The position numbers and the translations under genes are program-made. Below the pieces are notes generated by a model. That model was not told where the DNA came from, ran no database searches, and saw only the letters and a list, made by a program, of their open reading frames with translations. A stretch of DNA of 64,000 nucleotides from Christensenella sp. UBA3944 (GTDB lineage: Bacteria; Bacillota; Clostridia; Christensenellales; DTU072), in the NCBI GenBank assembly GCA_002385605.1, contig DGDU01000033.1:13587-77586 (forward strand), given 5' to 3'. Below, in pieces: positions 17,940 through 63,157 of the stretch; within the stretch, counting starts at the first letter, position 1, and the number at the start of each line of letters is the position of its first letter.

Positions 17940-17943
17940 CATT

Positions 17944-21151: not shown

Positions 21152-21180
21152 ATTATATAAGAAAATCGGAGGTTTAGCAA
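21152..21180 (-). promoter_or_regulatory. candidate sigma-A promoter of lepA
   Basis: Minus strand TTGCTA, 17 nt, TATAAT. Predicts a 5' UTR of roughly 100 nt. Confidence 0.5.
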
Positions 21181-21197
21181 TTAAATTTCGTATTCTG

Positions 21198-21226
21198 TTG
21201 ATTTTTGTAATTCTTTGTAATATAAT
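21198..21226 (+). promoter_or_regulatory. candidate sigma-A promoter of the GDPD gene
   Basis: TTGATT (21198-21203), 17 nt, TATAAT (21221-21226). Confidence 0.6.
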
Positions 21227-21258
21227 TCAATAGTAATTTTTTGGGAGGCTTGTTTGCA

Positions 21259-21996
21259 ATGCGTCTTTTTCAGGTACCTATCGCTCACAGAGGGCTTCAC
21301 GACGAAACTTCACCCGAAAACTCCCTTTCGGCATACAAAAAAGCTGTCGAGCACGGCTACAATATCGAAACCGATGTCCATCTGCTGAAGGACGGAAAGG
21401 TTGTGTGCTTCCACGATTTTTCTGTGGGTAGGATGATAAAGGGCAAGTCGGACAAAATAGAAGACCTTACATACGAAGACCTTTGCAAGGACGAATACCT
21501 GCTGCCTAACGGCGAGAGGATCCCCCTCTTCGAGGAGCTTATCGGGCTTGTAGACGGCAAAGTGGATATCCTTTGCGAGCTTAAGTCCATCAATTTTTAT
21601 AAGTTCGATCTGGAAAGCAAGGTATACGAGCTTATAAAAGGTAAGCCCTGGATAAAGGTTCAGGCCTTCAACCCCTTTACCATCGTATGGTTTGCCAAAA
21701 ACGCTCCCGAGGTATGCAGAGGGCAGCTTGCCACCAACCCGGCGAATTCCATACTAAGGTTTTTGCAGTCTGTCGCCGGGCCTTTCAGAATGCTTAAGCG
21801 CTCCCGCCCCGACTTTCTTGCCTACGACATACTAAAACTGCCCGACCAAAAGATAAACGAAATCGTTAAAAAATACAATATGAAGCTTCTCACTTGGACG
21901 GTAGACACCGACGAAAAAGTCGCAACCGCCCACGGCTCAAACGCCGATAATATCATCTTCGAGAAGATAAGGCCCGTCAGCTTCAAAGAAAACTAA
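21259..21996 (+). CDS. glycerophosphodiester phosphodiesterase family protein
   Basis: IAHRG, ENSL and ETDVH motifs. Start set at ATG 21259, 10 nt after GGAGG; the track start at 21241 is a TTG that overlaps the SD. Confidence 0.88.
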   Translation: MRLFQVPIAHRGLHDETSPENSLSAYKKAVEHGYNIETDVHLLKDGKVVCFHDFSVGRMIKGKSDKIEDLTYEDLCKDEYLLPNGERIPLFEELIGLVDGKVDILCELKSINFYKFDLESKVYELIKGKPWIKVQAFNPFTIVWFAKNAPEVCRGQLATNPANSILRFLQSVAGPFRMLKRSRPDFLAYDILKLPDQKINEIVKKYNMKLLTWTVDTDEKVATAHGSNADNIIFEKIRPVSFKEN

Positions 21997-44896: not shown

Positions 44897-44925
44897 ATTA
44901 TAAAGTATAGACAAAATCTTGTCAA
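44897..44925 (-). promoter_or_regulatory. consensus sigma-A promoter of ylxM-ffh
   Basis: Minus strand TTGACA, 17 nt, TATAAT (exact consensus). Confidence 0.7.
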
Positions 44926-45009: not shown

Positions 45010-45906
45010 TTATGAAAAAATAGCGTCGATAAACTCCTCTGCGTTAAAAGGTATAATGTCGTCTATTTTTTCGCCTATTCCCGCGTACACGACGGGAATC
45101 TCGAGTTCGGCGGAGATGGCAAGCACCACGCCGCCCTTTGCCGTGCCGTCCATTTTTGTCAGGATAATGCCGTCGATGTCGATTGCCTCATTGAATATAT
45201 CCACCTGGCTTACGGCGTTTTGACCCGTTGTGGCGTCCAGCACTATATAATTTCTCTGGTCGGCGTCCGGAAGCTCCCTTTGGATAACCCTGTTTATCTT
45301 TTTAAGCTCTTCCATTAGGTTCTTTTTGTTATGGAGCCTTCCCGCCGTATCCACGAGTATTACCTCGGTATTGTGCGCCTTTGCCGAGCTTATGGCGTCA
45401 AACACCACCGCGGCGGGGTCGCTGCCCTCGCCGTGCTTTACAAGCCTTACGCCCGCGCGCTGCGCCCAAATCTCCAACTGCTCCGAAGCCGCCGCCCTGA
45501 AGGTATCCGCCGCCGCCACTATAACCGATTTTCCTTCGCTGACAAACAGCTTGGCTAGCTTTCCAATCGCGGTTGTCTTGCCCACTCCGTTAACCCCCGC
45601 TACCAAAATAACAAGGGGGTAATCGTAGGGGGGTATCTCGTAGTCTATGCTTTCAAGCATTATCCTTTTTAATTCTTTCTTTGCTTGCTCGGGCGAGGTA
45701 ATCTTTTTGCGGTAGATGGCATCCTTAAGCTCCTCGATGATGTTTTCGGTGGCGGTCACTCCGACATCGGCCGATATAAGCGCCGCCTCAAGCTCCTCAT
45801 AAAACTCATCGTCCAAAGCCTTTGCCTTGAATACCTCAAAAATCTTTCTGCCCAGATTGTCGCGGGTCTTGCCCAAAAAGTTCTTTATGCTGGCGAAAAT
45901 GCCCAT
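45010..45906 (-). CDS. ftsY: signal recognition particle receptor FtsY (short form, no A domain)
   Basis: GVNGVGKTT and DTAGR motifs. Confidence 0.96.
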   Translation of the reverse strand: MGIFASIKNFLGKTRDNLGRKIFEVFKAKALDDEFYEELEAALISADVGVTATENIIEELKDAIYRKKITSPEQAKKELKRIMLESIDYEIPPYDYPLVILVAGVNGVGKTTAIGKLAKLFVSEGKSVIVAAADTFRAAASEQLEIWAQRAGVRLVKHGEGSDPAAVVFDAISSAKAHNTEVILVDTAGRLHNKKNLMEELKKINRVIQRELPDADQRNYIVLDATTGQNAVSQVDIFNEAIDIDGIILTKMDGTAKGGVVLAISAELEIPVVYAGIGEKIDDIIPFNAEEFIDAIFS

Positions 45907-45933: not shown

Positions 45934-48900
45934 TTAACCCGCCTTGTTGTCGATGGTCTTTAAGGCGTCGTCCAGCTTGGCGGATACCAGCTTGGATACG
46001 CCCTTCTCCTGCATCGTTATGCCGTAGAGAACATCGGCAAGCTCCATTATCGGCTTGCGGTGGGTTACGACGATAAACTGCGTAGAGCTGGAAAACTTCC
46101 TTAAGTACTGCGCGAACAGGCTGGCGTTGGCCTCGTCCAAAGCCGCCTCTATCTCGTCCAGAATGCTGAATGGCATTGGCTTAAGCTTTATTATTGCGAA
46201 CAATATTGCTATCGCCGTTAGCGCCCTCTCGCCGCCCGACATAAGGCTAATGCGGGTGAGTTTCTTGCCGGGTGGCTCCGCCATAATCTCTATGCCGGCG
46301 TCCAGAACCGAAAGGTTTTCGCCCTTCTCGAGTTCCAGCCTCGCCGTGCCGCCGCCGAACAGCTCCTTAAACACTTCCTGGAAGTTCTGGTTAACCTGAT
46401 TGAAGCTCTTTGTAAACTTCTCCACCATCTCGGTGGTAAGCTCTTCTATCATTTTAACCAAATCGGCCTCGGCCTTAACAAGGTCGTCGTATTGCTTCTT
46501 AAGTTCGGCGTATCTCGTGGTTTCGGATGCGAATTTCTCCTCGGCTAGCTCGTTTACGGGGCCCATCCTCTCTATCTTTCTTCTTAACGCCGACGCTTCC
46601 TGAGGCGATTTTACGGGGTCGAACTCGCAATCCTTCGCGTACTCCTCGGCGTATTTCTTTGCCGAGTCGAAATCGAGGCCGTAGTCCTCGCTTATCCTTG
46701 TCGAAAGGTTTGCGATGTCTATGTCTATCCTTTCGAGGGCTGCCTCTTCCCTTATGCGCCTTTCGTTTATGTCGGATAGCTGCCTGTTAAGCTCCGTTTT
46801 AAGCCCGTCCAGCTCGGTAATCCTGTCCTTAAGGCGCTTCTTGTGTTCGTCAAGCTCCTCTACCTCTTTACGGAGGGAGGCAATCTGCGCGCTGTTGTCC
46901 TCGGTGAGCGCGGATTTCTCGATTCTCGCTTCGAGATCGGCAAGCTCTTTGTCGTTGGTCGCCTTGCGCGCCCTCAGATCGAGTAAAGCCCTGTTTATGA
47001 GGTCAACTTCCGCCTTAATCGAGGCAAGTTCCTTGTTGATATTGTCTATCTCGTTCTGAAGCCCGCTTACCTCGACATAAGCGTCGGTCACCCTCTTGCT
47101 GAGGGCGTCGAGGTTTTGCTTTGCCGTAAACAGCTTGTCCTTTGCCTCGTTTACAAAGTCCGAAGCCCCCATCTTCTCGGCGGCCATATCGTCCTTATTC
47201 TTTTCGGACTGTTTGATTAAAACGGCAAGTTCGTCGAGGCGGGCGGTATTCGTGGCGATGGAGGTTTCCAGCTTTTCTATCGCGGCTTTGCAGGCGGATA
47301 CTTCGCTGTCGGCGGCCGATACCCTGCTCTCGAGGCTTCCTATATCGATATCCAGCTTATGGATTCTCGCGCCTATTATGCCCGCGGCTTTTTCTAGCTC
47401 GGCGCTCTCGGCGGCGTAGTCCTGAATGCTGTCCCTTAGCATTTCGATTTTCTTTTTAGTGGAGGCAAGCTTTTTCTTAAGCTCTTCAAGCTCGCTCTCC
47501 CTGGACAAAATCCTGTTTGACCTGTTGGCGTTGCTTCCGCCGCTAACCGAGCCGCTCTGGCTTACTATATCGCCGTTGAAATCTACGATTCGGAAGCCGA
47601 ATTTATACTTTTTGGCTATCCTAAATGCCGTTTCGCGGTCTTCGACGACAACAGTCTTGCCCAGAAGGCTGGAGATTACATTGTCGAATCTGGGCTCGTT
47701 TCTTATGATGTCGGAGGCTATGCCGATAACGCCTTCCTCGTCCAGAACCCTGTCGTATTCCCTCGCGAGGGGGTTGGCCCTAACCGTTGTAAGCGGCAGG
47801 AATGTGGCCCTGCCGTAGCCCTTTTGACGCAATAAATCGATGAGGTCGCCGGCGTCGCTCTCGTTGGGGGTAATGATATTCTGTATCGCCGCGCCCAAAG
47901 CGGACTCTATGGCTATCTGCAGATCCTCGGGAACGGTAATTACATCGCCCACCGTGCCCAGTATCTTGCGCTTTATCTCGGGGTTATTGTTTGCCTCCGC
48001 CATAAGTCGGCGGACGGATTCCTGGTAGCCCGTGTAGTCGTTTATGAACTCCTCGACCATCCTTATTTTTGCGTCTAGGGCGGCGTAATACTGCTCTGCC
48101 GCTCCCAAATCCTTTTGCGCGGCTTTCAGGTCGGCGAGGCAGTCGGCGAGGTTTTTGTCGGCAAGCGCCTTCTCACGCTGTTTCTCGTCCTTTTCGTTCA
48201 AAAGGACATTGAGGCTTGCGGAAAGCTCGTCCCTCGTCTTGGCAAGCGTTGTGTATGCCGCTTTTTTATCCTTAAGCTCTTCTTTTGCCTCGCGGATGGA
48301 ATCGATAAGCAAATCCCTTTCGATTTCGAGCTTTGCCTTATTTTTGTCTATCTCGGAGAGCTTATCCATGCTCTCCATCATAAGGCGGTTGGTCTTTTCT
48401 ATCTCCTTCTCCTGTTGGGCGACGGACTCGGCCAGCTCGGACTGGTTTCTGGCCAGAAGCTCGTAGGTCTGGCGTTTTTCTTTAAGAAGAAATGTTTTTT
48501 CGTTATACGCCACAACCTTTTCTTCCCGCTCGCGGTGCCTTTCGGCAAGGCGCGACTCCAGCTGTACGGTTTCGGTCGCTATGTTTTGCGCTTCCCTGCG
48601 GAGGTTAGCAAGCCTTTCGTTAAGAAGCCTGTACTCGCCCGCCGCCTTTTCGTTGCTGACAAGAAGTTCTGTAATCTGGTCGCGAAGCCTTGCCCCGTAA
48701 ATGTCGCTGTTCATCGAGTCGTTCATAGCGGCGTTATAGTCGGCGTTTACGCTTCTTAACTCTTCCTCTTTGGCGGCAAGCTCGGCGGCGATTTTCTCGA
48801 GATGCTTTCTTGCCTTATCCCTTTGCGCCGAGGCGGTTTCGGTCTGGTGCAGGAAATACAAAACCTCAAGCTGCTTAAGCTTATTCTTAAGTTCCCTTAC

Positions 48901-49542
48901 CTTTGCGGCGTCCTTGGCTTCCTGCTCGAGGGGGCCTAAATTGGATGAAATCTCGTGCAAAATGTCGTTAAGGCGGGAGAGGTTGTCGCGGGTTTTTTCC
49001 AGCTTCTTTTCGGTTTCGATTTTGCGCGCCTTGTGGCGGCTTATGCCCGCCGCTTCCTCGAATATCTGGCGGCGCGCCTCGGGCTTGGCCGAAAGGATTT
49101 CCTCAATTTTGCCCTGCCCTATTATGCTGTAGCCCTCGCGCCCGATACCGCTGTCGCGGAAGAGGTCAATGATATCCCTCCAGCGGCAGAGGTTTCGGTT
49201 TATAAAATACTCGCTTTCGCCGCTTCTATACATCTTGCGGGTTACGACAACCTCATCATAATCGACGGGGTAGCGCCTGTCCTCGTTGTCCAAGAAGAGG
49301 GATACCTCGCAGTACGACATCGATTTACGGTTTGCCGTGCCGCCGAAGATAATTTCGGGCATCTTTTTGCAGCGCAAAACCGAGGGGCTTTGCTCGCCCA
49401 ATACCCACCTGACGGCGTCGGCCACATTGGACTTTCCGCAGCCGTTGGGGCCTACTATACCTGTGATGTTGGACTTGAATTCTATCTCGGTTCTGTCCGC
49501 AAAGGATTTAAAGCCATAAAGTTCAATCTTTTTCAGGTTCAT
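45934..49542 (-). CDS. smc: chromosome segregation protein SMC
   Basis: GPNGCGKSN Walker A, long coiled coils, hinge, LSGGE-type signature MSGGERALTAIA, Walker B ILDEIEAALD. Confidence 0.97.
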   Translation of the reverse strand: MNLKKIELYGFKSFADRTEIEFKSNITGIVGPNGCGKSNVADAVRWVLGEQSPSVLRCKKMPEIIFGGTANRKSMSYCEVSLFLDNEDRRYPVDYDEVVVTRKMYRSGESEYFINRNLCRWRDIIDLFRDSGIGREGYSIIGQGKIEEILSAKPEARRQIFEEAAGISRHKARKIETEKKLEKTRDNLSRLNDILHEISSNLGPLEQEAKDAAKVRELKNKLKQLEVLYFLHQTETASAQRDKARKHLEKIAAELAAKEEELRSVNADYNAAMNDSMNSDIYGARLRDQITELLVSNEKAAGEYRLLNERLANLRREAQNIATETVQLESRLAERHREREEKVVAYNEKTFLLKEKRQTYELLARNQSELAESVAQQEKEIEKTNRLMMESMDKLSEIDKNKAKLEIERDLLIDSIREAKEELKDKKAAYTTLAKTRDELSASLNVLLNEKDEKQREKALADKNLADCLADLKAAQKDLGAAEQYYAALDAKIRMVEEFINDYTGYQESVRRLMAEANNNPEIKRKILGTVGDVITVPEDLQIAIESALGAAIQNIITPNESDAGDLIDLLRQKGYGRATFLPLTTVRANPLAREYDRVLDEEGVIGIASDIIRNEPRFDNVISSLLGKTVVVEDRETAFRIAKKYKFGFRIVDFNGDIVSQSGSVSGGSNANRSNRILSRESELEELKKKLASTKKKIEMLRDSIQDYAAESAELEKAAGIIGARIHKLDIDIGSLESRVSAADSEVSACKAAIEKLETSIATNTARLDELAVLIKQSEKNKDDMAAEKMGASDFVNEAKDKLFTAKQNLDALSKRVTDAYVEVSGLQNEIDNINKELASIKAEVDLINRALLDLRARKATNDKELADLEARIEKSALTEDNSAQIASLRKEVEELDEHKKRLKDRITELDGLKTELNRQLSDINERRIREEAALERIDIDIANLSTRISEDYGLDFDSAKKYAEEYAKDCEFDPVKSPQEASALRRKIERMGPVNELAEEKFASETTRYAELKKQYDDLVKAEADLVKMIEELTTEMVEKFTKSFNQVNQNFQEVFKELFGGGTARLELEKGENLSVLDAGIEIMAEPPGKKLTRISLMSGGERALTAIAILFAIIKLKPMPFSILDEIEAALDEANASLFAQYLRKFSSSTQFIVVTHRKPIMELADVLYGITMQEKGVSKLVSAKLDDALKTIDNKAG

Positions 49543-49577
49543 TTTACTGCAGCTACTCAGCCGGTCTCCTTTTTAGA

Positions 49578-52500
49578 TTATTCAGCTATTCCGCTGTCCG
49601 CGAAGGCGTCTTTGCCAATATTTGAAGCGCCCCGGGGAAGGTTTACATAATTTAAGCTTGCGCAGCCCGCAAAGGCGCGCTCTCCTATAACAATGTTAAC
49701 GGGGGCTTCGGACAAATCCAGCCCGAGGAAGGAGCGGCAGTCGAGGAAGGCCCCTTCTTCTATTCTTGCGAGTTCGCTGAAGTCGCCGTAAAGCATCGAA
49801 AGCGACGAGGCGTCGGCAAAAGCGTACTTGCCTATCGCCGTAATCCTTCTGGAAAGCGTTACGGTGGCAATGCCCATGCAGCCCGCGAAAGAGTACTCTT
49901 TAATCTCTGTCGCCTTGGTGAGCGTAACATAACGGAGGGTGAAGGGTATGTTATACAGCGTTTCGGTAAGCGTTCCGCCTGCCATTATATGCTGTTTTAC
50001 CACATTGGCGGCGTATTCGCCCGCCGTGCCGAATATGTAGCCGAACTGCGACTGCGCGCCTGTCGCGCTAAGCGACCTTCCCGCGAAAGGTATCGAGAGC
50101 GACACAAGCGAGTTGGTGCCCTCAAGCGATCCGCCCTCTATGATATTCACCGAATACGGTATCGTAAGGGATGTTATCGAACGGCAGTTGTAGAAGGCTT
50201 TAGCTGGTATCTCTGTTATGCCCTCGTTTATAGTTATCGAGGTTACCGCCGTAAGGTTATAGAAAGCGCCGTACCCTATCGCCGAGGCGGAGGTTATTGC
50301 TATCGACCTTAAGGCCTCGGGTATGTAGAAGGTTCTTGAGCCAGACGTGCTGAAGTATTGCGTCGTCGCGCCTATAGTGCCCTCGGTTGCCTCGCCGAAT
50401 ATGTATCCGAACAAGGCGGCAGCGCCGCTTGCCGAACGGTTGGAACCGACAAACGGCAAGGTGACGCTCTCTAAAGCCGAGCAGCCCGCGAAGGCGCCCG
50501 AGGCAATCGATGTCACGCTGTCGGGAATCACAATAGAGGTAAGCCCTTTGCAGTTGGCGAATGCCGAGGCGCCGATGCTCACTATGCCGCTGTTAAGGTA
50601 AAGCTCGGTTATCTCGTCGCAGTTATAGAAGGCGCCGCTTGCTATATTGGTTGCGTTGGTAACCGTCACGCTGTAAAGGTTATTGGGAAGCCTGGTGTAT
50701 ACGGTTGTGCCTTCGCCGTAAACCTGCGCAGTCGTGTTCATGCCCTGCGACACAAAGTTGAAGAAGTAGCCGAGCAAGGCGTTCTGGCCTGCGGCCGAGG
50801 GTGAAGCTCCGATAAACGGCACCGTCAGCCTTTCGAGCCCCGTTACGCCCTCGAATATGCCTATGCCTATGCTTTCGACGCCTGCGGGAATGGCGATCTG
50901 GGTAAGCGCGGTATTCTTAAACGCCGCCGCCCCTATTACCTGCAGCTGCGAGCCCGCCGCGAATATTATTTCGTTAAGCTGCGCGCAGCCCTCGAAGGCG
51001 TTGGCGCCTATCGAAGTCACGCTCGCGGGTATGGTTATGCTCCTTAAAGCCGTCAGGCCCGAGAACGCCCCGCTCTCGATGGCGACTAGCCCCGCGGGAA
51101 GCGTAATCGTAGTGATTCTGGTGTTATAAGAGAAGGAATTTGTCCTTATCCTCGCGGCGTCGGTGATGTTTACAACGGTCAGATTGCTTGGCGCGCCTCC
51201 GAACACATAATTTATGGTCGCGGCCTCGCCCGTAGCCGAGCGGGAAGCGCCCACAAACGGCACCGTAAGCGTCTGTATTCCGCTGTCCTTAAAGGCGCTC
51301 TTGCCCACGCTCGTGACTTCCTTATTTATTGTAAGCGTTGTCAGGTTAGAAAGCCCCGAAAGCGCGCCGTAGCCAATGCCCGAAGCGTTGGTAACAGTAA
51401 TATTTCTGATGTTTTGGGGTATCCTGGCATAGGCTATCTGCCCGGCGCCGTCGCCGTAGTGTTGCCCTACCGCGCCGCTCGCGCCCGCCGCTACCTGCTC
51501 GAACCAGTAGCCCAGCAGAGCTTCCTGCCCGTCGGCAACGCTTCTCGCGCCGATGTAAGGAACGGTAAGGTTTTCGAGGTTGAGGCAGCCCGAGAACGCT
51601 CCCCGGTGTATCGATGTCACATTGTTAAGGGTGAGGTTCACAAGCCCCGTCATGCCAAGCAAAGCGTTTTCGGCGATGGTAACGGCCGAGGTAATCACGA
51701 GGGTTTGCACGCTCGAGATTCCGCTTTCGGACTCTGTGCCGAACACATGCCTCATCGTCGCCCTGGCGTCCACGGAGTTTGTGCGCTCTCCTACAAACGG
51801 CACCGTCAGGGTTTCTAGCGACACGCAGCCCTCGAAGGCAAGCGCGCCTATCGTTGCAACGCCGCTGTTGATGGATATGCTTGTTATGAAGTGGCAGCCC
51901 GAGAACGCCCCGTAATTGATGGCGGTAGCCGAGGTCACGGTGACATTCTTAAGCGTGGTCGGGATTTCAAAAGATATCGGCGAGGTCTGCTGGGCGTATT
52001 TTTGGGAAATTCCGCCGCTCTCCGCCCGCCCGAAGAAGTACCCGAGTACGGCGTTTGCGCCCGTTGCGTCCCTGGCCGAGCCAATAAACGGCACCGAGAA
52101 CCTCTGGCTTAACGGGCAGCCGTTAAAGACCGCGCTACCTATGAATGTAACGCTGTCGGGTATGACGATATCCGCGAGAGATGCGCAGCCCTTGAATGCG
52201 GCTTCGTTGATGGTCGAAAGCTTGGATCCCGAAGCGAACACTACCGACCTTAAAGCCGAATTCTCGAAGGCGTGCCCTTCTATGGCAAGCACGCTTGCGG
52301 GTATGGTTATATTCTCCAATGCGGTATTATACGCGGCGTAAGCGCCTATCTGCGTAATACCCTCGTTGAGGTAAAGGGCGGTAATCCGCGTGTCCCTTAT
52401 GGCGTCGCTCGCCAGGAAGGCAGCCGCGGTAACGGTTAAGGTCTTAAGGGCTATAGGCACATTCGCGTTGTCCGCAGCGTGCCCGAAAAGATATCCCAGC

Positions 52501-55500
52501 TTGTGCTCGTCGGTTGTGGGCACATTCTTGTCCTTGTCCTTGCCTACAAAGGGCAGGGTTAGCGAAACAAGGTTTACGCAGCCCTCAAAAGCAGCCTCGC
52601 CCATTGTAAGGACGGTTTGCGGTATTACGGCTTCCTCCAAAGAGGCGCAATCCTTAAAGGCCTCGTAGCCTATCTCGCGCACGCCGTCGGGAAGGGTAAT
52701 CTGCCTTAAGACATCGCAGCCCGAGAAGGCGCCCTCGCCCACGGATATGAGGCGGGAGCCGCTCTCGAAGTTCACCGAAATAAGGTTATGGCAGTTAGCG
52801 AAGGCGTAAGCGCCTATCGTCCCGACATCGGCCGATATTGTAATCGTTTCGAACGCCGCGCCGTAGAAGGCGTAATCGCCTATGCTTAGTATCCTGGCGT
52901 TGCCGCCGATATCTATAAGCTGCAGAGAGGGACACTCTATAAACGCCCTGTCGCCTATGCTCACCTTGCCGAGCGCCCTGAAGGTTCTCAGGTTAGCCAT
53001 ACCCGAGAAAGCGCCGTCGGAAACCACCGAATCTCCCGTGACCGTCACGGATACGAGGCTTGCTGGAATCTCGCTGTAGAAGTAATTGCCCGCTTCGAAA
53101 TACTGCCTTACGGCGCCCGATGCCGATTGGTCTGTAAAGCCGAACAGGTACCCCAACAGCCCCTCCCTGCCGGAGGCCGATGCGCTCTCGCCCACGAAGG
53201 GCAGCACTACGCTTTCAAGCGCCTTGCAGTTGGCGAACACGCCCTCGGGTATAGAAGCGATATCTCCGCTTATTTCTATCGATTTAAGGTTAAAGCCCGC
53301 GGGGAAGGCCGATGTCGTCAGCTTTGTGACAGATGTCAACTTAATATTATTAAGGTTTGTTAGCGGCTCTCCGGTAAGGTACATAAGAGAGCTCTCGGCG
53401 CCCTCGGCGTCCGCGCCGGCGCCTGCAAACGGCAGCTCAAGCGACACAAGCCCTGTGCAGCCCACTATAAGGTTTTTGCCCAGCGCGCCGCCGTCCCTTA
53501 CCGTAAGGTTCTGCAGCGAGGCTATATTGGAGAACGCGCCGTACCCGCCCGCGCGGTTCACGATAACCGTCTTTAAGGTGGCGGGTATAAAGGCGTAAAC
53601 GCTTTCGGTTTCGCTTATAAACTGCTCGGTTACGCCGGCATCCGTCGCCTCGCCGAAGCCGAATATGCTGCCCAAAACGGCGTTTGCCCCGACAGCGTCG
53701 GCAGAGGTGCCCGCGAAGGGCAAATCTAGGCTTTCGATTATAAGGTTGCCGCGCAGCGAGCCTTCTTCTATGGACACAATGCCCGCTCCCAGCGTAAGCG
53801 ACCTGAGGGCGGTTATGCCCCTGAAAGTCTTATTGGTTATGGCGATTTCGAGGGTGTCGTTGGCAATCGTGATATTCTCTATCGCCGCCGAGCCGCCGAA
53901 CACCTCGTCAAGGGCGGGGTCGGAATCCGAGGGGCTCTTGCCCACAAACGGGACAGTTATATTCTTAAGCGAGGCGTTATTTCCGAACGCGAGATCGCCC
54001 ATCGATTCCAGCGACCTGGGAAGCGCTATGGTTGCAATCGCTGTGTTATAGAATGCCTTATCGCCTATCGACGAAAGCGTTTGATTGAGGCTTACCTGAA
54101 CAAGGCTTACGCAGTCCATAAACGCCGCTTCGCCGATGGTTCGTACGGACGCAGGCAGGACGGCGCCAGTCAGGCTGTTGGCGCCCGCGAAGGCTTCTTT
54201 GGCGATATAGCCAAGTGCGGTATCTGCGAGGTTTACGCTCGCGAGGTTGTAAGCGCCTTTGAAAGCGCCCTCTCCCATCTCAATAAGCGAGGCGGGCAGG
54301 CGGGCAAAGGCTATGCCCGAATTTTCGAAGGCGTAATCGCCTATGTATGTAAGCTCTTCGCAACCCTCAAGGTTTAGGGCTATAAGCCTGTCTGTTTCGG
54401 CGAAGGCCTTTTCCTCTATACGTGTAAGCGTCGAGGGAATATCGAATATCCTTAAGTTTGCGCAATTATAGAATGCCTCGTATTCGATGACAAGCAGGCT
54501 GGGTCCTCCCCTGAAGCTTACCGTATCCAGGTTAGCGCAATCCTTAAATGCCGCGAAGCCTATGCTCAGAAGCCCCGAAGGCAGGGATACCGTTTGCAGA
54601 TAGGTATTGGAAGCGAAGGCGTACGCGTCTATTCTCACAACGCCGTCGGGCACGGTGTAGCTCGCCGCGTTAAGCGACTTGGGATAGGAAATAAGCACCG
54701 AGCCGTCCTTCGAGAACAGCACGCCCGACACCACCTTGTAGCCCGAGCGGTAGCCCGAGAGGTTGAGGCCCGAAACAGGCGTCTCGTAGAAGGGGTTTAC
54801 GCCCATATAAGTTACGCCCGAAGGAATGGCAAATGTTGCGAGGTTGGAATGAGCGAAGGCGTAGCTTCCTACACGGGCAAGGGCGCTGTTTGTCCCGAAG
54901 CTAATCGAAGAGAGCAAGGTATGGGCAAAGGCGTAATCGCCTATCTCCAACGCGGACGCCGGCAGAGCGACCGTCGATACCTTGGTATGGGCAAAGGCGT
55001 AATCGCCCAAAGTTTCTAGGGCGCTGCCCGCGGCAAAGGTTATGCCCGCGAGGTTTTCGCAACCCTCGAAGGCGTAATCGCCTATATACCTAAGAGAAGC
55101 CGGGAAGGTTATAGCCGTTATGGCGGTGTTGCCGCGGAATGCGCTATCCCCTATGTTTACAAGCTGTGCTGCCACGGCGAAGGTAACCGAGGCAAGGCTC
55201 AGGTTGTTCGCGAAAGCGTAATCGCCGATGGCGAGCACGCCCGCGGGCACGCTCACCGATGTTATCGCCGTGCCGAAAAAGGCTTTGGCGTTGATGTAAG
55301 CCAGCCTGCTTCCTATAACCTCGAAGGTTATGGTTTGCAGGGCGCTTCCCTCAAACGCCGATTCGTCTATTGTCACGACGGATGCGGGAATATTAACCGC
55401 CGCGATTTGCGCCATGTAGAAGGCCTTTTTGTTTATGGATGCCAGATTCTCGTTGAGGGTGACATTCAGCGCAGGTATGCCGCTAAGAGCCCCCTCCCCG

Positions 55501-58500
55501 ATGTGCAGGGCGTTTGTTATAATGATGTTTTTTAAGGAAGAAGGAATATAATATGTGAATTCCTCATCCGCCCCGTATTGGGTGATTTCGGCGAAGCCCG
55601 CCGCGGTCTCTGCGCCGAAGATATACCCTAGCATGGCGTCCGCCCCGCCCGTAGCCTCACGGTTTGCCCCGATATAGGGCAGGCTTATCGTTTCAAGCGA
55701 CAGGCAGCCCCTGAACAGGCCCTGCCCTATATGGGTAAGGGCGTTGGGCAGGTAAACCGTGCGCAGGTTGACGCTGTTTTCGAAGGCGTAATCGCCTATA
55801 TACGCAAGGTTGCTGTTGGGTACGCTAAGCACCACAGATACCAGGTTGGGCATATTCGAGAAGGCGCCCTCGCCTATCGAAATTACGCTGTTCGGGATAT
55901 TCAAATCCTGTATTACGGTAGCCCTGAAAGCGTAATCGCCTATCGTGCGAACCCTGTTAAGGTTAATTAAGGATAGGTTGTTCGCGCCGTCAAAAGCGTA
56001 ATCGCCTATGGCAGTAATCGAGTTGGGAAGCACAATCCTTTCGATTCCCGTATTGCCGGCAAAAGCCCTTTCGCCAATCTCCTCTGCGCCGTCGTTAATG
56101 GCGACTTCCTCAATCGAGGTATTCATGAACGCGCCGTAGGGTATGCGGTCGGCGCTGGTTATCGCCACGCTCGCGAGCGTGCCAGGTATGAAGTAATAAG
56201 CAAAGCCGCTGTCGGAGTAATACTGCTGAACGGCGCCCGCGGAGGGCTCGTCCGAATACCCGAAGATGTATCCGAACACGGCGTCGGGAGTGCCCTCGAC
56301 ATCCCTCGCCGAGCCCACAAAGGGTATAGTAAGCGCCTCGAGGGCGTTAAGCCCGTACAAAGCGTTAGCCTCTATCGTTATAATATTGGCGTTAAGCTTT
56401 ACCTCAACAAGGCTTGCCACATTGTAAAGCGCGCCGTAGCCTATCACGGAAGCGTTGGTTACTTCCAGGTATGCAAGCCCCGAAGGAATTATGTAATGGC
56501 CTTGCTGCCCTTCGGCGTATTGCTGCGTAACTCCGCTTTCATCTTCCGCGGGAGCGAACAGGTAACCGAGGATAGCCTCGGCGCCCTCGGCGTTACGGCT
56601 TTTGCCGATAAAGGGTATAGTGAGGGCTTGAAGGTTTTGGCAGCCCTCTAACGCCTTAGCGCTCATTTCGGTTACGGTGTCGGAGATTACGATTTCCTCA
56701 AGCGAAGCTATATTGGAGAAAGCCCCGTAAGGTATGCGGGTGGCTTTTGTCACATTTACATACTTTAGCCCCGCGGGTATATGGTAATAAGCGAAGCCGC
56801 CTTCGGAATAATCCTGCCTTATCGCGCCCGCCGTTTCGCCGTCGGAGTAATTAAACAAATACCCGAGCACGGCGTCGTCGGTGCCGTTGGCGTAACGGGC
56901 GGAGCCTATGAAGGGTATCGTGAGGGCTTCCAATGCCCCGCACCCCTCAAACATAAGGGCGGACATCCTGGCAAGCTCGGAAGAAATCTTTGCCTCGGTT
57001 AGCGAAACGCAGCCCGCGAAGGCCTTATGCCCTATCGCCTTTACGCCGTCGGACATCGTCACTTTAATAAGGCTTTCGCAGCCCTCGAAGGCCGAAGCGC
57101 CTATCCTCACCAAAGAGGAAGGCAGATACGCCTCGAGGATTGCCTCGCAGCCCATAAACGCCTTAGAGCCTATGGTTGTAAGCCTGTTAAAGGCGCGCAG
57201 GTCAAGACCCTCAATCCTGTTAAACTCGGCAAGGTTTACGCAGCCCTCAAAGGCCGAGTCGCCTATCGAGGTTATCGTTGCGGGAAAGCTCATTGCCCTC
57301 AGGTTCACACAGCCATAGAAAGCCTTTTCGGCTATCGCCGCAATATGGGTTATATCCAAGTTGATAATATCCCTGAGCGCCGCGCTGCCCATAAAGGCGC
57401 CCGCCTCGATGGCTGCGAACTGCTCGGCGGTGAAGGTTACTCTCTCGAGCGCCGAATACGCGAACGCCATCGAAGCTATCGAAGTCACATTCGCGGGTAT
57501 GGAGAAAGCGGTTATCACACTTCCGCCGTCGTTCCTGTTTGCGGGGTATTGGATAAGTTTGGTGCCTTCATAGTTATAAAGGACGCCGTCTACGGACCTG
57601 AAATACATTCCGCCCATAACATCGATGCTCTCGAGGGCGGGGCAGCCTATAAAAGCGCCCGACGCGATTTGCTTTACGCTCGAGGGTATGGTTATTCTCT
57701 TTATGTAAGAATTGCCCGAGAAAGCATACTTGCCTATGGCGGTAACGGGTATTTCGCTGCCGTAATACTGTATGGTGTCAGGGACATTTACTTCATCGAC
57801 AGAAGAGTCGCCGAAATATTTGGTAAGTATAGCCTCGTTATTTTTAATATAAAACCTGAAGTCGCCTACCGCCACGATTTCCATTTCCGCGCCTTCCTTC
57901 CAGTAGATGGCGGGATCGTCCCATCTGTCCTTCCAATCGGCGGGCTTTGCCGCTCCCGTGGCGTAAACCACAATTAAGCCGCTTCCCGCGAAGGCGTTCC
58001 TGTCCACGGAAGTAATGCTTTGGGGCAGGGTTATGGTCTTTATTCCCGTCTTATTTACGAAGGCGCTGCCTATGGACACGACTTCGTCATTGCCGAAGAT
58101 GCTGCCGGGAACGGTGATTTCTTCGCTGCTTCCGGTGTAGGAAGTGATATATACCGAACTGACGCGGTCGTTGTCGTTATACTCGACAAGCACATAAGCG
58201 TATTTTATATTTTCTTCCGTATTCTCATACTCGTCGGTATACGCCTCATAATTTACCGTAAGGAGGGGGCAATTATGGAAGGCGAGGGCGCCGATGTAAG
58301 TAAGCGACGCGGGCAGCTCTATGCTGCTAAGGGCTTTGCAGCCGTTGAAAGCCTCATTGGCAATGCTGATAAGCGTGCGGGGCAGGCTTACATTCATCAA
58401 GGAAGCGCAGCCCATAAACGCCTTTTCGCCGACATATACGGTGTTCTCGAGAGTTATCTGCCTTATTTCGCCGCAACCCGAGAACGCCCCATATGGGATC

Positions 58501-60944
58501 GAGCGGCTGTCCGTGATGATAACGCTCTTAAGCGACACGGGCAGATAATATCTTATGTAATTGATGTCGTCGTACCACTGATACGCCGCCGAGCTACCCG
58601 TGAAATAGCTGTTGCCGAAGATATACCCGAAAACGCTTTCGGAAGACCCCGCTTCCCCTCTCGCGCTTCCCACGAAGGGTATGGTGAGCTCTTCTAGCAG
58701 GACACAGCGGTCGAAAGCGTTGCTGCCTATCCATGTTACGCTGTCGGGTATAATCATCTCGGTAACGGATGTGCCCGCGAACACATAGCAGCCGATGGAT
58801 TTTAAGGTATCGGAAAGCGTGATTTCTATTAGCGAGGTGCAGTCATAAAATGCGTAGTTTCCTAAAGTTTCGACACTGCCCGGCACTGTGAAATTGTTAA
58901 ATGTTTTGCCCTGCGGGTATTGGATGAGGCTCTTTGCGTCCGAGCTGTATAACACGCCGCCGTTTGACATGTAAACACTGTTGCCCGGGGCTACAAGAAT
59001 CTCCTCTAGCGACACGCAGCCGCGGAAGGGCCCGTTTCCGATGTTGCTTACGCCCGCGGGAATGGTAAAGCTGGTAAGAGAAACACAGCCGTTAAAGGTT
59101 TCGGCGTCTATGTTCTTTATCGAGGCGGGAAGGTTAACCGTCATTAGCGCGGTGCAGTTTTTGAAGGATTCGGTGCCAAGGCGGCTCACGCCGTTATGCA
59201 GGGTAACCATCGTTATGTAGGAATTGCCGCGGAAGGCGTCGTTGGAAATAGCCGTCACGGCTACGCCCTTATAGGTAGAGGGCACAAAGACTTCCGCCTC
59301 CAGCCCGCTGTAGCCCGTAACGATGTAAGTGCCGTCGCCCGCCAGCGTAAACTTAAGCCCCTGGGTTTGCTTTTCTTTCCACGAAGCTATAACGGCCATA
59401 TCCTGTGTGTATTCCCACTTGGCGGGGGCAAAAGCCTGCCCGTTAAGTGTCCAGCCGGCGAAGTCGTAGGCGAACCTCTCGCCCTTAACCTCGGTAAGCC
59501 TGTAAATAAAGTTTTCGTCGTATCTTACCTCTATGTACTTGCCGTTTTCGTCCGAAAGCGTGGCGCCGCTAACCGTCGCGCCCTCTTCCAAAGCGGTAAA
59601 GTACAGCTTGTATACATTGGGCCTCAGCGAGCCGAACACCTCGAGGTCGGTCGCGGGCATCTTTTCGGGAAGCTCTCTCCAGCCCGTAAAGGTGTAGCCC
59701 GTCCTCTGCGGGTCTTCTATGGCCTCGACATCGTCATTCGCCCTGTAGGTTTTTATCAGGTATACTTCGCCGTCAAGATAATAAATTAGCGAGAATGTAT
59801 ATGTGAAATACCCGCTTACTATAATATCCCTCGCGGGCATCGTGGCGGGAATCTCGCCGCCTTCATAAGCCCAGCCCGAGAACATGGCGTTGGGCTGGGT
59901 GGGGTAATCTATGAGGACTATTGGCTCGCCGCAAAGCACGTCCTGCGTCCAGTAATGGCTGTCGCCAACGAGATATCTTATGTAGAAAGTCTGCGGGGAG
60001 AATGTGCCGTAAATATCAAGGTCGTAAGCGGGCATGGTAAGAGGCACGGGGGCGCCGCCCTCGACAGACCAGCCCATAAAGTTAAAGCCGTCCTTCCTGG
60101 GGTCGGAGGGCTTGAAGGTGATGGATTGGTTATATTCGTATTCTATCTCGAGGGGCTTGCCGTCCACTATGTAGGGAACGCCCTCGATGAAGTACCTGAC
60201 TTTATATTTGTTAACCTGCCATTTTGCAAAAACTATAAGGTTTCCCGTTGTGCCCTTTTCTATCCTGGTAACCTCGGTGTCGTTCTCGTCAAACCACCCG
60301 AGGAAGGTGTAGCCTTGCCTCTGGGCGGGGCTGAGGGTTATGGTCGAAGTTTCTATTGTGTATTTTGCGGGGTTTGCCTGGGGATTGGTGCCGTCCTCGA
60401 TGTTGTTGTATGTAATCGAATAATCAATAAGACTCCATTTGGCGCGAAGGGTTATGTTTCTTGTGGGCTTATAGGGAGATGTAACAGGGTTTTTATCGTT
60501 TACATTTTCAAACCAGCCCAAGAACCTGTAGCCCGTTTTTGTCGGCCTGGGAAGGTCGTCTATTTCCTCTACGCCCTCCTGCCTGGCGACCGCCGAGCCG
60601 CCGTCCGAGTCAAACTCGACATCATACTTTGGTTTTTCAACCGGGGGCGTAACCTTTTCTTTCCATTTGGCGTAAACCGTAACATTGCCGCCGTAGCGAA
60701 GCAACTCATCTTTGGTTACATGCTTGGAATAAATATCCTTGTCGAAGAACCAGCCCTCAAAGGTATAACCTTCCCTCACGGGGTCGGCGGGCAAATCGAA
60801 GTCTTCGCCGTTAAGCTCGATAGGCGGGATTTCGTTACCTCCCTGCGTATCGAAGGTTACGGTGTAAGTTTGGGGCTTGTCGTTACAGGCCGCTATACCG
60901 ACTATAAGACAAAGAGCCAAAAGAGCCAAAAGGACTTTTTTCAT
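49578..60944 (-). CDS. giant (3788 aa) surface lipoprotein with N-terminal Listeria-Bacteroides (Flg_new) repeats followed by BspA-type leucine-rich repeats
   Basis: Signal peptide with lipobox LIVGIAAC (Cys20). About 7 repeats with GYTFxGW...AKW (aa 26-525). Then roughly 3200 aa of IPxSVxxIGxxAFxxCxxLxxI units. SD GGAGG 7 nt before the ATG. Confidence 0.9.
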   Translation of the reverse strand: MKKVLLALLALCLIVGIAACNDKPQTYTVTFDTQGGNEIPPIELNGEDFDLPADPVREGYTFEGWFFDKDIYSKHVTKDELLRYGGNVTVYAKWKEKVTPPVEKPKYDVEFDSDGGSAVARQEGVEEIDDLPRPTKTGYRFLGWFENVNDKNPVTSPYKPTRNITLRAKWSLIDYSITYNNIEDGTNPQANPAKYTIETSTITLSPAQRQGYTFLGWFDENDTEVTRIEKGTTGNLIVFAKWQVNKYKVRYFIEGVPYIVDGKPLEIEYEYNQSITFKPSDPRKDGFNFMGWSVEGGAPVPLTMPAYDLDIYGTFSPQTFYIRYLVGDSHYWTQDVLCGEPIVLIDYPTQPNAMFSGWAYEGGEIPATMPARDIIVSGYFTYTFSLIYYLDGEVYLIKTYRANDDVEAIEDPQRTGYTFTGWRELPEKMPATDLEVFGSLRPNVYKLYFTALEEGATVSGATLSDENGKYIEVRYDENFIYRLTEVKGERFAYDFAGWTLNGQAFAPAKWEYTQDMAVIASWKEKQTQGLKFTLAGDGTYIVTGYSGLEAEVFVPSTYKGVAVTAISNDAFRGNSYITMVTLHNGVSRLGTESFKNCTALMTVNLPASIKNIDAETFNGCVSLTSFTIPAGVSNIGNGPFRGCVSLEEILVAPGNSVYMSNGGVLYSSDAKSLIQYPQGKTFNNFTVPGSVETLGNYAFYDCTSLIEITLSDTLKSIGCYVFAGTSVTEMIIPDSVTWIGSNAFDRCVLLEELTIPFVGSARGEAGSSESVFGYIFGNSYFTGSSAAYQWYDDINYIRYYLPVSLKSVIITDSRSIPYGAFSGCGEIRQITLENTVYVGEKAFMGCASLMNVSLPRTLISIANEAFNGCKALSSIELPASLTYIGALAFHNCPLLTVNYEAYTDEYENTEENIKYAYVLVEYNDNDRVSSVYITSYTGSSEEITVPGSIFGNDEVVSIGSAFVNKTGIKTITLPQSITSVDRNAFAGSGLIVVYATGAAKPADWKDRWDDPAIYWKEGAEMEIVAVGDFRFYIKNNEAILTKYFGDSSVDEVNVPDTIQYYGSEIPVTAIGKYAFSGNSYIKRITIPSSVKQIASGAFIGCPALESIDVMGGMYFRSVDGVLYNYEGTKLIQYPANRNDGGSVITAFSIPANVTSIASMAFAYSALERVTFTAEQFAAIEAGAFMGSAALRDIINLDITHIAAIAEKAFYGCVNLRAMSFPATITSIGDSAFEGCVNLAEFNRIEGLDLRAFNRLTTIGSKAFMGCEAILEAYLPSSLVRIGASAFEGCESLIKVTMSDGVKAIGHKAFAGCVSLTEAKISSELARMSALMFEGCGALEALTIPFIGSARYANGTDDAVLGYLFNYSDGETAGAIRQDYSEGGFAYYHIPAGLKYVNVTKATRIPYGAFSNIASLEEIVISDTVTEMSAKALEGCQNLQALTIPFIGKSRNAEGAEAILGYLFAPAEDESGVTQQYAEGQQGHYIIPSGLAYLEVTNASVIGYGALYNVASLVEVKLNANIITIEANALYGLNALEALTIPFVGSARDVEGTPDAVFGYIFGYSDEPSAGAVQQYYSDSGFAYYFIPGTLASVAITSADRIPYGAFMNTSIEEVAINDGAEEIGERAFAGNTGIERIVLPNSITAIGDYAFDGANNLSLINLNRVRTIGDYAFRATVIQDLNIPNSVISIGEGAFSNMPNLVSVVLSVPNSNLAYIGDYAFENSVNLRTVYLPNALTHIGQGLFRGCLSLETISLPYIGANREATGGADAMLGYIFGAETAAGFAEITQYGADEEFTYYIPSSLKNIIITNALHIGEGALSGIPALNVTLNENLASINKKAFYMAQIAAVNIPASVVTIDESAFEGSALQTITFEVIGSRLAYINAKAFFGTAITSVSVPAGVLAIGDYAFANNLSLASVTFAVAAQLVNIGDSAFRGNTAITAITFPASLRYIGDYAFEGCENLAGITFAAGSALETLGDYAFAHTKVSTVALPASALEIGDYAFAHTLLSSISFGTNSALARVGSYAFAHSNLATFAIPSGVTYMGVNPFYETPVSGLNLSGYRSGYKVVSGVLFSKDGSVLISYPKSLNAASYTVPDGVVRIDAYAFASNTYLQTVSLPSGLLSIGFAAFKDCANLDTVSFRGGPSLLVIEYEAFYNCANLRIFDIPSTLTRIEEKAFAETDRLIALNLEGCEELTYIGDYAFENSGIAFARLPASLIEMGEGAFKGAYNLASVNLADTALGYIAKEAFAGANSLTGAVLPASVRTIGEAAFMDCVSLVQVSLNQTLSSIGDKAFYNTAIATIALPRSLESMGDLAFGNNASLKNITVPFVGKSPSDSDPALDEVFGGSAAIENITIANDTLEIAITNKTFRGITALRSLTLGAGIVSIEEGSLRGNLIIESLDLPFAGTSADAVGANAVLGSIFGFGEATDAGVTEQFISETESVYAFIPATLKTVIVNRAGGYGAFSNIASLQNLTVRDGGALGKNLIVGCTGLVSLELPFAGAGADAEGAESSLMYLTGEPLTNLNNIKLTSVTKLTTSAFPAGFNLKSIEISGDIASIPEGVFANCKALESVVLPFVGESASASGREGLLGYLFGFTDQSASGAVRQYFEAGNYFYSEIPASLVSVTVTGDSVVSDGAFSGMANLRTFRALGKVSIGDRAFIECPSLQLIDIGGNARILSIGDYAFYGAAFETITISADVGTIGAYAFANCHNLISVNFESGSRLISVGEGAFSGCDVLRQITLPDGVREIGYEAFKDCASLEEAVIPQTVLTMGEAAFEGCVNLVSLTLPFVGKDKDKNVPTTDEHKLGYLFGHAADNANVPIALKTLTVTAAAFLASDAIRDTRITALYLNEGITQIGAYAAYNTALENITIPASVLAIEGHAFENSALRSVVFASGSKLSTINEAAFKGCASLADIVIPDSVTFIGSAVFNGCPLSQRFSVPFIGSARDATGANAVLGYFFGRAESGGISQKYAQQTSPISFEIPTTLKNVTVTSATAINYGAFSGCHFITSISINSGVATIGALAFEGCVSLETLTVPFVGERTNSVDARATMRHVFGTESESGISSVQTLVITSAVTIAENALLGMTGLVNLTLNNVTSIHRGAFSGCLNLENLTVPYIGARSVADGQEALLGYWFEQVAAGASGAVGQHYGDGAGQIAYARIPQNIRNITVTNASGIGYGALSGLSNLTTLTINKEVTSVGKSAFKDSGIQTLTVPFVGASRSATGEAATINYVFGGAPSNLTVVNITDAARIRTNSFSYNTRITTITLPAGLVAIESGAFSGLTALRSITIPASVTSIGANAFEGCAQLNEIIFAAGSQLQVIGAAAFKNTALTQIAIPAGVESIGIGIFEGVTGLERLTVPFIGASPSAAGQNALLGYFFNFVSQGMNTTAQVYGEGTTVYTRLPNNLYSVTVTNATNIASGAFYNCDEITELYLNSGIVSIGASAFANCKGLTSIVIPDSVTSIASGAFAGCSALESVTLPFVGSNRSASGAAALFGYIFGEATEGTIGATTQYFSTSGSRTFYIPEALRSIAITSASAIGYGAFYNLTAVTSITINEGITEIPAKAFYNCRSITSLTIPYSVNIIEGGSLEGTNSLVSLSIPFAGRSLSATGAQSQFGYIFGTAGEYAANVVKQHIMAGGTLTETLYNIPFTLRYVTLTKATEIKEYSFAGCMGIATVTLSRRITAIGKYAFADASSLSMLYGDFSELARIEEGAFLDCRSFLGLDLSEAPVNIVIGERAFAGCASLNYVNLPRGASNIGKDAFADSGIAE

Positions 60945-61017
60945 CTAACTACCTCCGGCAGCACACACTCGGGTCTTAGGCATATTTATAAAAATAATAT
61001 ATAAATATACATAATAC

Positions 61018-61046
61018 ATTCTACAATCATAAGCATATTATGTCAA
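61018..61046 (-). promoter_or_regulatory. candidate sigma-A promoter of the giant lipoprotein gene
   Basis: Minus strand TTGACA (61046-61041), 17 nt, TAGAAT (61023-61018). AT-rich 5' UTR of roughly 65 nt. Confidence 0.6.
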
Positions 61047-61127
61047 TAGCAAACAGAGCGAATCGCGTCCTGATTGAAGGGCAAAATGAACGGGCAAAAA
61101 CGGATTTATTAATTATTGACAAAAAAA

Positions 61128-61160
61128 TAACCGCGGTAAAAATCAATCTCCCGCGGCAAA
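61128..61160 (-). terminator. weak hairpin plus T-run after rnc
   Basis: Minus strand CCGCGG, 14-nt loop, CCGCGG, then TTATTTTTTT. Confidence 0.4.
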
Positions 61161-61175: not shown

Positions 61176-61850
61176 TTATTCGTCCTGGAGGCCGCTGAAA
61201 TATCCCTCGGCGGCGTCCTGCTCGGCCCTCTTTTTGGACGAGCCCGCCCCGCGGCAGACGACATTTCCGTCTATCGAAACAACGGATACAAACCCGCCTT
61301 CGGGCGCAGGCTTTGTGTCGAATTCCAGCTTTTTGCCGCACCTTGCGCAGGTTTCGTACAGCAAGGATTTATAATCGCCGTTTTTTGCCGCGTACTCGCT
61401 GTGTATGAAGTCGGCAAGCGACTCGAGCACAAACTTTTTGCAGGCGTCAATGCCCCCGCCGTCCACCATAATGGCGCCGGTTATCGCCTCAAAGAGGTCG
61501 GCTTTTACGGCCTGGCTCTTTCTCACTTCGTCCTGTATCGTCCCGCCCGAGGTCTTAAGATATTTTATGAGGTCCAGTCTGTCGATGGCGGCGCTAAGCG
61601 TCCTTGTCGATACAAGGTTAGCCCTCATTTTTGTGAGGTAGCCCTCGGATTCTGTCCTGTACGCGTCAAAGAGATATTCGGCGACAATAAAATTAATAAT
61701 GCTGTCGCCCAGAAATTCCAGCCTTTCGTAGGATTGCACGCCCTGCTCGTTGGCGTAAGAGCTGTGCGTGAAGGCCGTAAACAGCAATTCCCAGTCCTTG
61801 AAGAAATAGCCTATTTTCTTTTGTACTTCGACGATATCGAAGTTTCTCAT
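61176..61850 (-). CDS. rnc: ribonuclease III
   Basis: ERLEFLGDS signature plus C-terminal dsRBD. Confidence 0.96.
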   Translation of the reverse strand: MRNFDIVEVQKKIGYFFKDWELLFTAFTHSSYANEQGVQSYERLEFLGDSIINFIVAEYLFDAYRTESEGYLTKMRANLVSTRTLSAAIDRLDLIKYLKTSGGTIQDEVRKSQAVKADLFEAITGAIMVDGGGIDACKKFVLESLADFIHSEYAAKNGDYKSLLYETCARCGKKLEFDTKPAPEGGFVSVVSIDGNVVCRGAGSSKKRAEQDAAEGYFSGLQDE

Positions 61851-63128: not shown

Positions 63129-63157
63129 ATTATATCCAATAAGCGCGTTTATGTCAA
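63129..63157 (-). promoter_or_regulatory. consensus sigma-A promoter of rpmF-plsX-rnc
   Basis: Minus strand TTGACA, 17 nt, TATAAT (exact consensus). Confidence 0.7.

Follow-up and report, generated by a model that had tools for sequence, protein, structure and literature searches.

A giant gene for a predicted leucine-rich repeat lipoprotein as a stable feature of the rnc–smc junction in a clade of uncultured Clostridia

The stretch of DNA analysed here (the window; 64,000 nucleotides (nt) of contig DGDU01000033.1 from Christensenella sp. UBA3944) carries on its minus strand the genes ackA, plsX, rnc, a giant gene, smc, ftsY, ylxM, ffh, rpsP and rimM, in this order. The giant gene is an open reading frame (ORF) of 3,788 amino acids (aa) that separates rnc from smc. 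We conclude that this ORF is a real gene, for a predicted surface lipoprotein with leucine-rich repeats (LRRs) of the LRR_5 family. Comparison of the rnc–smc junction across relatives shows that it is an old feature of one clade, in disagreement with a preliminary description of the window that had taken it for an accessory, adhesin-like gene placed inside a housekeeping operon.

The locus and the architecture of the giant protein

The giant gene, its parts and its three neighbours are as follows.

49578..60944, (-): giant ORF, 3,788 aa, a single ATG-to-stop frame
60885..60944, (-): signal peptide and lipobox, aa 1–20, MKKVLLALLALCLIVGIAA followed by C, read from the translation
59346..60866, (-): seven Flg_new repeats (Listeria-Bacteroides or InlB B-repeat type), aa 27–533, boundaries set by eye
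49581..59270, (-): BspA-type LRR_5 region, aa 559–3788, about 3,230 aa, from Pfam and a hidden Markov model (HMM) of the repeat unit
52536..52544, (-): within-species in-frame 6-nt indel in a KDKDK run, aa 2801–2803, from assembly alignment
61176..61850, (-): rnc (RNase III, 224 aa), which shares 4 nt with the end of plsX, from Pfam
45934..49542, (-): smc (1,202 aa), from Pfam SMC_N and SMC_hinge
45010..45906, (-): ftsY (298 aa), 27 nt after smc, from Pfam SRP54 and SRP54_N

Given the base composition, a stop-free run of 3,788 codons would arise by chance with a probability of about 1e-67. The protein starts with MKKVLLALLALCLIVGIAAC, that is, MKK, a hydrophobic core and I-A-A-C, which ends in the lipobox Cys20 and fits the pattern [LVI][ASTVI][GAS]C; the orthologs described below have L-A-A-C, embedded in ...AGLAAC or ...VGLAAC. 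We infer that Cys20 is lipidated and the signal peptide cleaved off. The repeats that follow are recognised by Pfam PF09479 Flg_new (160.9 bits, cut-off 27), by Flg_new_2 and by TIGR02543 (106 bits, cut-off 20.95), while the remainder of the protein scores 1355.8 bits with PF13306 LRR_5 (gathering cut-off 27.7), distributed over 25 stretches. A home-made unit HMM and motif counts delimit at least 88 canonical LRR units of about 23 aa with the consensus ITIPTSVTSIGEGAFAGCASL; about 20 longer segments break up this array, and 12 of those fit the strict pattern P[FY][IVA]G...GY.F. Sequence matches of the LRR region in the PDB comprise 4fs7, 4gt6, 4h09, TpLRR 6mlx and PcpA 4cp6, the best at 1e-34 to 1e-38. 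A single-sequence AlphaFold 2 (AF2) model of aa 1290–1720 has a predicted local distance difference test score (pLDDT) of 64 overall and of 70–85 in regular beta strands, and Foldseek retrieved LRR proteins with this fragment, including 4gt6 and 4fs7, at template modelling (TM) scores of just 0.2–0.4. Neither Pfam nor a motif scan found an LPXTG motif, a C-terminal hydrophobic stretch, or an S-layer homology (SLH) or choline-binding match in the protein. The anatomy given in the preliminary description has therefore stood: the single 3788-codon ORF between rnc and smc (ORF list and Pfam of the neighbours), the lipobox, about 7 Flg_new-type repeats and about 3200 aa of BspA-type LRRs (translation and Pfam), and the missing LPXTG, SLH or choline-binding anchor (motif scan and Pfam).

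The high repetitiveness of the protein and the probable origin of the source as a metagenome-assembled genome (MAG) would be compatible with a repeat-rich stretch having been wrongly joined into one ORF, but this is scarcely credible. Tandem Repeats Finder detected no DNA-level tandem repeats across the giant gene and the internal protein repeats are just about 26% identical, which leaves little to mislead an assembler. The FtsY sequence of the window recurs in identical copies in 86 blocks of a public collection, and six contigs of the same species were read, with Logan, ENA, JGI and NCBI as sources (including GCA_035359315.1, 'MAG TPA: Clostridia bacterium'). All six assemblies, which are independent and stem from different projects and assemblers, have a giant gene of 3,786–3,788 aa, then the 35-nt spacer, then smc. 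In the final 6.3 kb of the gene, they differ from the window by 1–16 nt (gapped alignment) and by small in-frame indels, namely the 6-nt one listed above and another of 3 nt at aa 3070; the flanking genes diverge by at most 0.2% within the species. Orthologs from other species, moreover, share the length and the repeat order. The ORF, whose correct assembly the preliminary description had wished to see confirmed, is hence unbroken wherever it was read.

The rnc–smc junction in relatives and the age of the insertion

Contigs and loci of the relatives compared are labelled here with L-numbers. RNase III homologs split into a few with 55–67% identity to the window rnc product and a remainder at or below 49%. 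At least four other species-level lineages, with rnc 60–67% identical, carry a collinear ortholog of the giant gene at the rnc–smc junction, the complete ones being 3,776–3,787 aa long; in register, the orthologs are 48–51% identical to the window protein, as compared with about 26% out of register. In L001 (rnc 63%) and L002/L003 (rnc 60%), the order is pta-ackA-rpmF-plsX-rnc, a gene of 703–707 aa on the opposite strand, and the giant gene with the same Pfam architecture. L011 continues the L001 contig, with smc and ftsY following the giant gene, whose product has 3,786 aa in L001+L011 and 3,787 aa in L002/L003. A 3,776-aa version lies between rnc and smc in L018 and L020 (GTDB representative 'Clostridiales bacterium Firm_09'), and in L093 (rnc 67%) the ortholog stands directly after rnc, as in the window, and reaches at least 1,481 aa at the contig end. 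Aligned over its full length with the protein of L001+L011, the window protein is 49.8% identical, with 104 gap columns in 3,839 and conservation that is even throughout; the neighbouring proteins of this pair are 55–86% identical.

Three outgroup lineages (L095, L094 and L016/L017) have plsX-rnc-smc-ftsY with 106–321 nt between rnc and smc, and in all three at least 15 flanking genes otherwise follow the order of the window. L095 (rnc 57% and smc 64% identical) reads plsX-rnc-106 nt-smc, and L094 (smc 50%) and L016/L017 (smc 51%) read pta-ackA-rpmF-plsX-rnc-smc-ftsY-ylxM-ffh-rpsP-...-rnhB, i.e. the window order minus the giant gene. The adjacency of rnc and smc in these outgroups implies that it is ancestral and that the giant gene is an insertion, so that the preliminary description was right in regarding the gene as extra to the ancestral arrangement. 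As the comparison shows, the gene would have been gained once, after the L095 lineage had split off and before the giant-bearing lineages diverged, and then inherited vertically with its length and repeat order almost unchanged. Judged by the junctions compared, its carriers are a small clade of uncultured Clostridia that includes the window species and 'Clostridiales bacterium Firm_09'.

The proportion of synonymous differences between species lies at 0.69–0.80 for all genes compared, which means that synonymous sites are saturated. At non-synonymous sites, the giant gene has diverged by 0.25–0.49; its dN/dS is about 0.13–0.15 (an upper estimate), as against 0.04 for smc and 0.06–0.08 for plsX, so that it is under purifying selection, if weaker than that on its neighbours. 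Its GC content at third codon positions (GC3) is 0.661, compared to 0.663 in 34 other window genes, and its relative synonymous codon usage (RSCU) correlates with theirs at r = 0.93, a value in the range seen for long native genes. In overall GC it slightly exceeds the other genes (0.544 vs 0.525), an excess that resides in codon position 2 and reflects a composition rich in Ala, Gly, Ser and Thr. Neither an integrase or transposase nor any other ORF was found in the interval, and neither a tRNA nor junction repeats of 10 nt or more at the borders of the gene.

These data bear directly on the reading of the preliminary description, taken here as a recent, horizontally acquired accessory adhesin gene dropped into a housekeeping operon. 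The absence of the gene from three outgroup lineages with otherwise identical synteny, the often accessory nature of adhesin-type repeat proteins and the somewhat raised overall GC are what such an event might leave behind, but we regard it as very improbable. The ortholog occupies the same locus in the other lineages, which are separated from the window species by saturated synonymous sites; GC3 and RSCU are native, with the GC excess confined to codon position 2; and the gene was found in every clade member and every same-species assembly read. The marks of a mobile island (integrase or transposase, tRNA or repeat borders, atypical codons, patchy presence) are thus lacking. The word 'accessory' is contradicted by the collinear orthologs at the junction, the very kind of finding that the preliminary description had named as its refutation, and further by the saturated synonymous sites and native codon usage; an insertion can be upheld only as an ancient event. 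Other parts of the same account fared better: the ORF list, tRNA scan and repeat search agree with its statement that no integrase, transposase or flanking direct repeat is present, and its impression of a composition like that of the neighbours holds for GC3 and codon usage, now computed, overall GC being slightly higher.

A scan of GTDB representatives returned a single ortholog, that of Firm_09, and 69 other matches that are at most 33% identical over substantial segments. A search with the N-terminal 700 aa gave matches of no more than 1,221 aa and 40% identity and missed the known orthologs, seemingly a limit of the search tool; a metagenome scan with an alignment of the middle of the gene yielded just distant LRR proteins (22–27% identity); and of 80 pattern matches in a scan of genome contigs with the rnc protein, none was confirmed. 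The exact giant protein of the window is not on record in a protein look-up, and a literature search for Firm_09 or LVAO gave no matches.

A gene on the opposite strand, encoding 703–756 aa, lies between rnc and the giant gene in three relatives (L001:5794-7905 (-), L003:10766-12889 (-) and L020:3020-5290 (-)). It has no Pfam or NCBIfam match and is absent from the window and from L093; a gain in one subclade or a loss from the other would account for this pattern. In the L012-L015 lineage (smc 56%), smc-ftsY has been relocated beside lepA-hrcA-dnaK, an arrangement that says nothing on the rnc junction. There, smc-ftsY follows ftsK-miaB-cinA-recA-rny and precedes GDPD-lepA-hemN-hrcA-grpE-dnaK-dnaJ-prmA, genes that lie about 23 kb further on in the window (12313–21996); the rearrangement breaks both rnc-smc and ftsY-ylxM.

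The remainder of the window is densely filled with housekeeping genes, e.g. obg, prmA-dnaJ-dnaK-grpE-hrcA, lepA, aspS and hisS. Between rplS and a comM-like gene, a 757-aa protein without a family match is encoded (36658–38931, (-)), the position and size of which (757–763 aa) are kept in relatives and in outgroup L094. Another gene (6343–9114, (-)) encodes a 923-aa protein with weak tetratricopeptide repeat (TPR) matches, all under the gathering scores. Some 9 kb upstream of rnc, relatives also possess a second giant gene, whose product of 3,738–3,746 aa has an MBG_3 domain (seen at L002:1-1533, L003:1-1536 and L004:1-1153); a counterpart in the window species would fall past the right end of the window.

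Transcription signals around the giant gene

The non-coding intervals on either side of the giant gene contain the following elements.

61121..61157, (-): terminator-like hairpin (GC stem) with a U-run directly after rnc, from folding
61018..61046, (-): promoter-like TTGACA-17-TAGAAT (11/12) upstream of the giant gene, from a consensus scan
61005..61025, (-): 21-nt motif TGTAGAATGTATTATGTATAT, three TGTAnAA-like heptads over the -10 and the presumed start site, from conservation
60951..60956, (-): ribosome-binding site (RBS) GGAGGT, 6 nt before the ATG, from the sequence
49543..49577, (-): giant–smc spacer, 35 nt, with no terminator or promoter-like site and a fold z of -1.15

The hairpin after rnc folds at -16.6 kcal/mol (z -3.2), a value that none of 200 shuffled sequences reached, and the outgroup L016 has a comparable hairpin followed by U9 in the same place. 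A terminator after rnc is also a feature of the acpA-rnc-smc-ftsY operon of B. subtilis (PMC4838370). The window shares with that operon the order of rnc, smc and ftsY on one strand; it differs in having plsX, not acpA, before rnc, and an 11.4-kb gene with a promoter of its own between the rnc terminator and smc. The direct succession of rnc, smc and ftsY known from B. subtilis is therefore interrupted in the window and present in L016, L094 and L095.

Upstream of the giant gene, the -35 element is TTGACA in the window and L093 and TTGACT in L001, L003 and L020, with the same -10 in all five. The 21-nt motif has one match in the window, where none is expected by chance, and is nearly invariant in the five lineages; exact matches to a degenerate form of it stand upstream of the ortholog and occur only in L001, L002, L003, L020 and L093. 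The stretch with the RBS, GGAGGTAG, is invariant in the five lineages as well. Promoter, 21-nt motif and RBS have all been kept in the window, L093, L001, L003 and L020 despite the saturation of synonymous sites in the coding sequences. The TGTA-heptad element could serve as an operator or leader element. An extended -10 was considered and rejected, as TG abuts TAGAAT directly and misfits TGnTATAAT, and the similarity between the giant-gene promoter and the smc promoters of the outgroups is too weak to claim kinship.

No comparable signals lie in front of smc. In the window, a consensus scan detected no sigma-70-like site in the final 2.7 kb of the giant gene. The roughly 2 kb that precede smc in L011 contain none either, and in L020 a single weak 9/12 site on the same strand stands about 650 nt before smc. 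Non-coding conservation does not stand out in the aligned last 300 nt of the gene. In relatives, the giant–smc spacer measures 58–64 nt and includes a 9-bp GC-rich hairpin without a U-run (L011:6282-6339; L018:6256-6319), which might serve in attenuation or as a site of RNase processing, and which is deleted in the window species. The nearest outgroup, by comparison, has TTGATT-17-TATAAT directly before smc. The two further large gaps between genes of this region each carry a perfect 12/12 TTGACA-17-TATAAT site, at 63129–63157 (-), before rpmF-plsX-rnc, and at 44897–44925 (-), before ylxM-ffh; in this organism, consensus matches appear to be good markers of where operons begin. As no recognisable signal stands between the giant gene and smc, the two are probably transcribed together with ftsY as a single unit (giant-smc-ftsY), and the signals suggest that smc is read from the giant-gene promoter. 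On the simplest reading, we infer three units, rpmF-plsX-rnc, giant-smc-ftsY and ylxM-ffh-... The claim that the gene sits inside a housekeeping operon is thus correct as regards its place between rnc and smc, but at odds with the terminator-like hairpin after rnc and the conserved promoter of the giant gene itself.

It is possible, if not what we would expect, that the giant gene is transcriptionally independent and that smc has retained a promoter of its own, either within the giant gene, at its 3′ end, or in the 35-nt spacer. As a rule, essential genes do retain such promoters, the GC-rich hairpin of the relatives could attenuate read-through, consensus scans miss weak or alternative-sigma promoters, and L020 has the weak 9/12 site. 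Set against this are the lack of sigma-70-like sites upstream of smc in the window and in L011, the unremarkable non-coding conservation at the end of the gene, the missing U-run in the spacer hairpins, together with the loss of the hairpin from the window, and the near-perfect consensus promoters at the other operon starts of the region. A further step, which we put forward tentatively and think unlikely, is that, with 11.4 kb of adhesin gene now following the sole recognisable promoter, expression of smc and ftsY, which encode a chromosome-condensation protein and the SRP receptor, depends on read-through of the giant gene and that the TGTA-heptad element regulates all three genes. If true, this would in part account for position, length and repeat order having stayed fixed since before synonymous saturation.

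Possible function and kinship with known surface proteins

Taking the evidence together, we consider it likely, with a probability of roughly three in four, that the giant protein is a long, lipid-anchored LRR adhesin or fibril whose gene entered this clade in a single, old insertion and has been inherited vertically. The domains suggest that the protein would be exported through Sec, that Lgt would lipidate Cys20 and signal peptidase II cut before it, and that the N-terminus would thereby stay tethered to the membrane. The seven Flg_new repeats could then form a stalk across the wall, from which the LRR solenoid of about 3,230 aa, with roughly 110 or more turns, would extend away from the cell to form a fibril with a length of tens of nanometres. 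Its LRR faces may bind partner cells, particles or polymers. The characterised LRR_5 proteins BspA, LrrG/HupY and PcpA are adhesins.

Several observations weigh against this picture. The structure model is weak, with three insert modules of about 53 aa in the AF2 fragment below 50 pLDDT; because of this weakness and the poor modelling of the inserts, a single continuous fibril is an assumption. As to transcription, the promoter and terminator scans consist of consensus matches alone, and a weak or non-sigma-70 promoter may lie within the 3′ end of the giant gene. As to origin, no donor of the inserted gene came to light, the best matches outside the orthologs being at most 33% identical, and the pattern-based scans were incomplete, since some contigs that are known carriers of the gene escaped them.

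That length and repeat order are so strictly conserved, and diversity within the species so low, is also compatible with a role in a surface coat, where an S-layer-like or sheath-like structural component of the envelope would cover or shape the cell instead of binding ligands. The gene is apparently a core gene of the clade, its near-consensus promoter is strong and conserved, its RBS is perfect, and its low diversity within the species is unlike that of many contingency adhesins. Nevertheless, we judge such a role to be rather improbable: the protein has no known S-layer or SLH domain, it would be anchored by a single lipid, its dN/dS is above that of smc by a factor of three to four, and both established knowledge and the names attached to its NCBIfam and PDB relatives associate LRR_5 proteins with adhesion. 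An adhesin or fibril thus continues to be the interpretation that we prefer.

The closest likeness is to the BspA/TpLRR type (Tannerella forsythia BspA; Treponema TpLRR 6mlx; 4fs7, 4gt6 and 4h09), which belongs to the same LRR_5 family and, like the giant protein, comprises secreted surface proteins for which ligand binding by the LRR faces may be presumed. The giant protein is about 10 times longer than the solved examples, and differs from this type by its N-terminal lipid anchor and Flg_new stalk, by the roughly 20 longer segments within its array and by a fixed rnc–smc position in one clade. Streptococcus HupY/LrrG (NF047961) and pneumococcal PcpA are LRR_5-type adhesins of Gram-positive bacteria that match it in part, at 118.6 bits (cut-off 1250) and 74 bits (4cp6), respectively; PcpA has a choline-binding anchor in place of the lipobox, and the size gap is about fourfold or more. 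With Mycoplasma Gli349 (NF045861; 92.2 bits, cut-off 1750), the similarity is at the level of repeats only. The Listeria internalins InlA, InlB and InlH also combine an LRR domain with Flg_new or B-repeats in a surface protein, but the scores stay far below the cut-offs (NF033189 InlA, 77.6 vs 1600; NF033188 InlH, 51.3 vs 1050). Internalin LRRs are 22-residue units with a cap and an IR domain, in contrast to the LRR_5 units of the giant protein, in which the domain order is reversed, with the B-repeats ahead of the LRRs, and neither an LPXTG nor a GW anchor is found.

In itself, the protein is otherwise ordinary, another of the giant BspA-like surface proteins of uncultured anaerobes and a new member of a known family, at an unusual but stable locus. 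What looked like an accessory insertion in one genome is an old and stable feature of a clade, a distinction that could not be drawn by reading a single genome. Orthologs that are only about 50% identical share the number and order of roughly 110 repeats, which recommends the giant gene for studies of how repeat arrays avoid recombination and slippage. Finally, if giant-smc-ftsY is one transcript, essential genes of these bacteria would depend on transcription through the gene of a giant surface protein.

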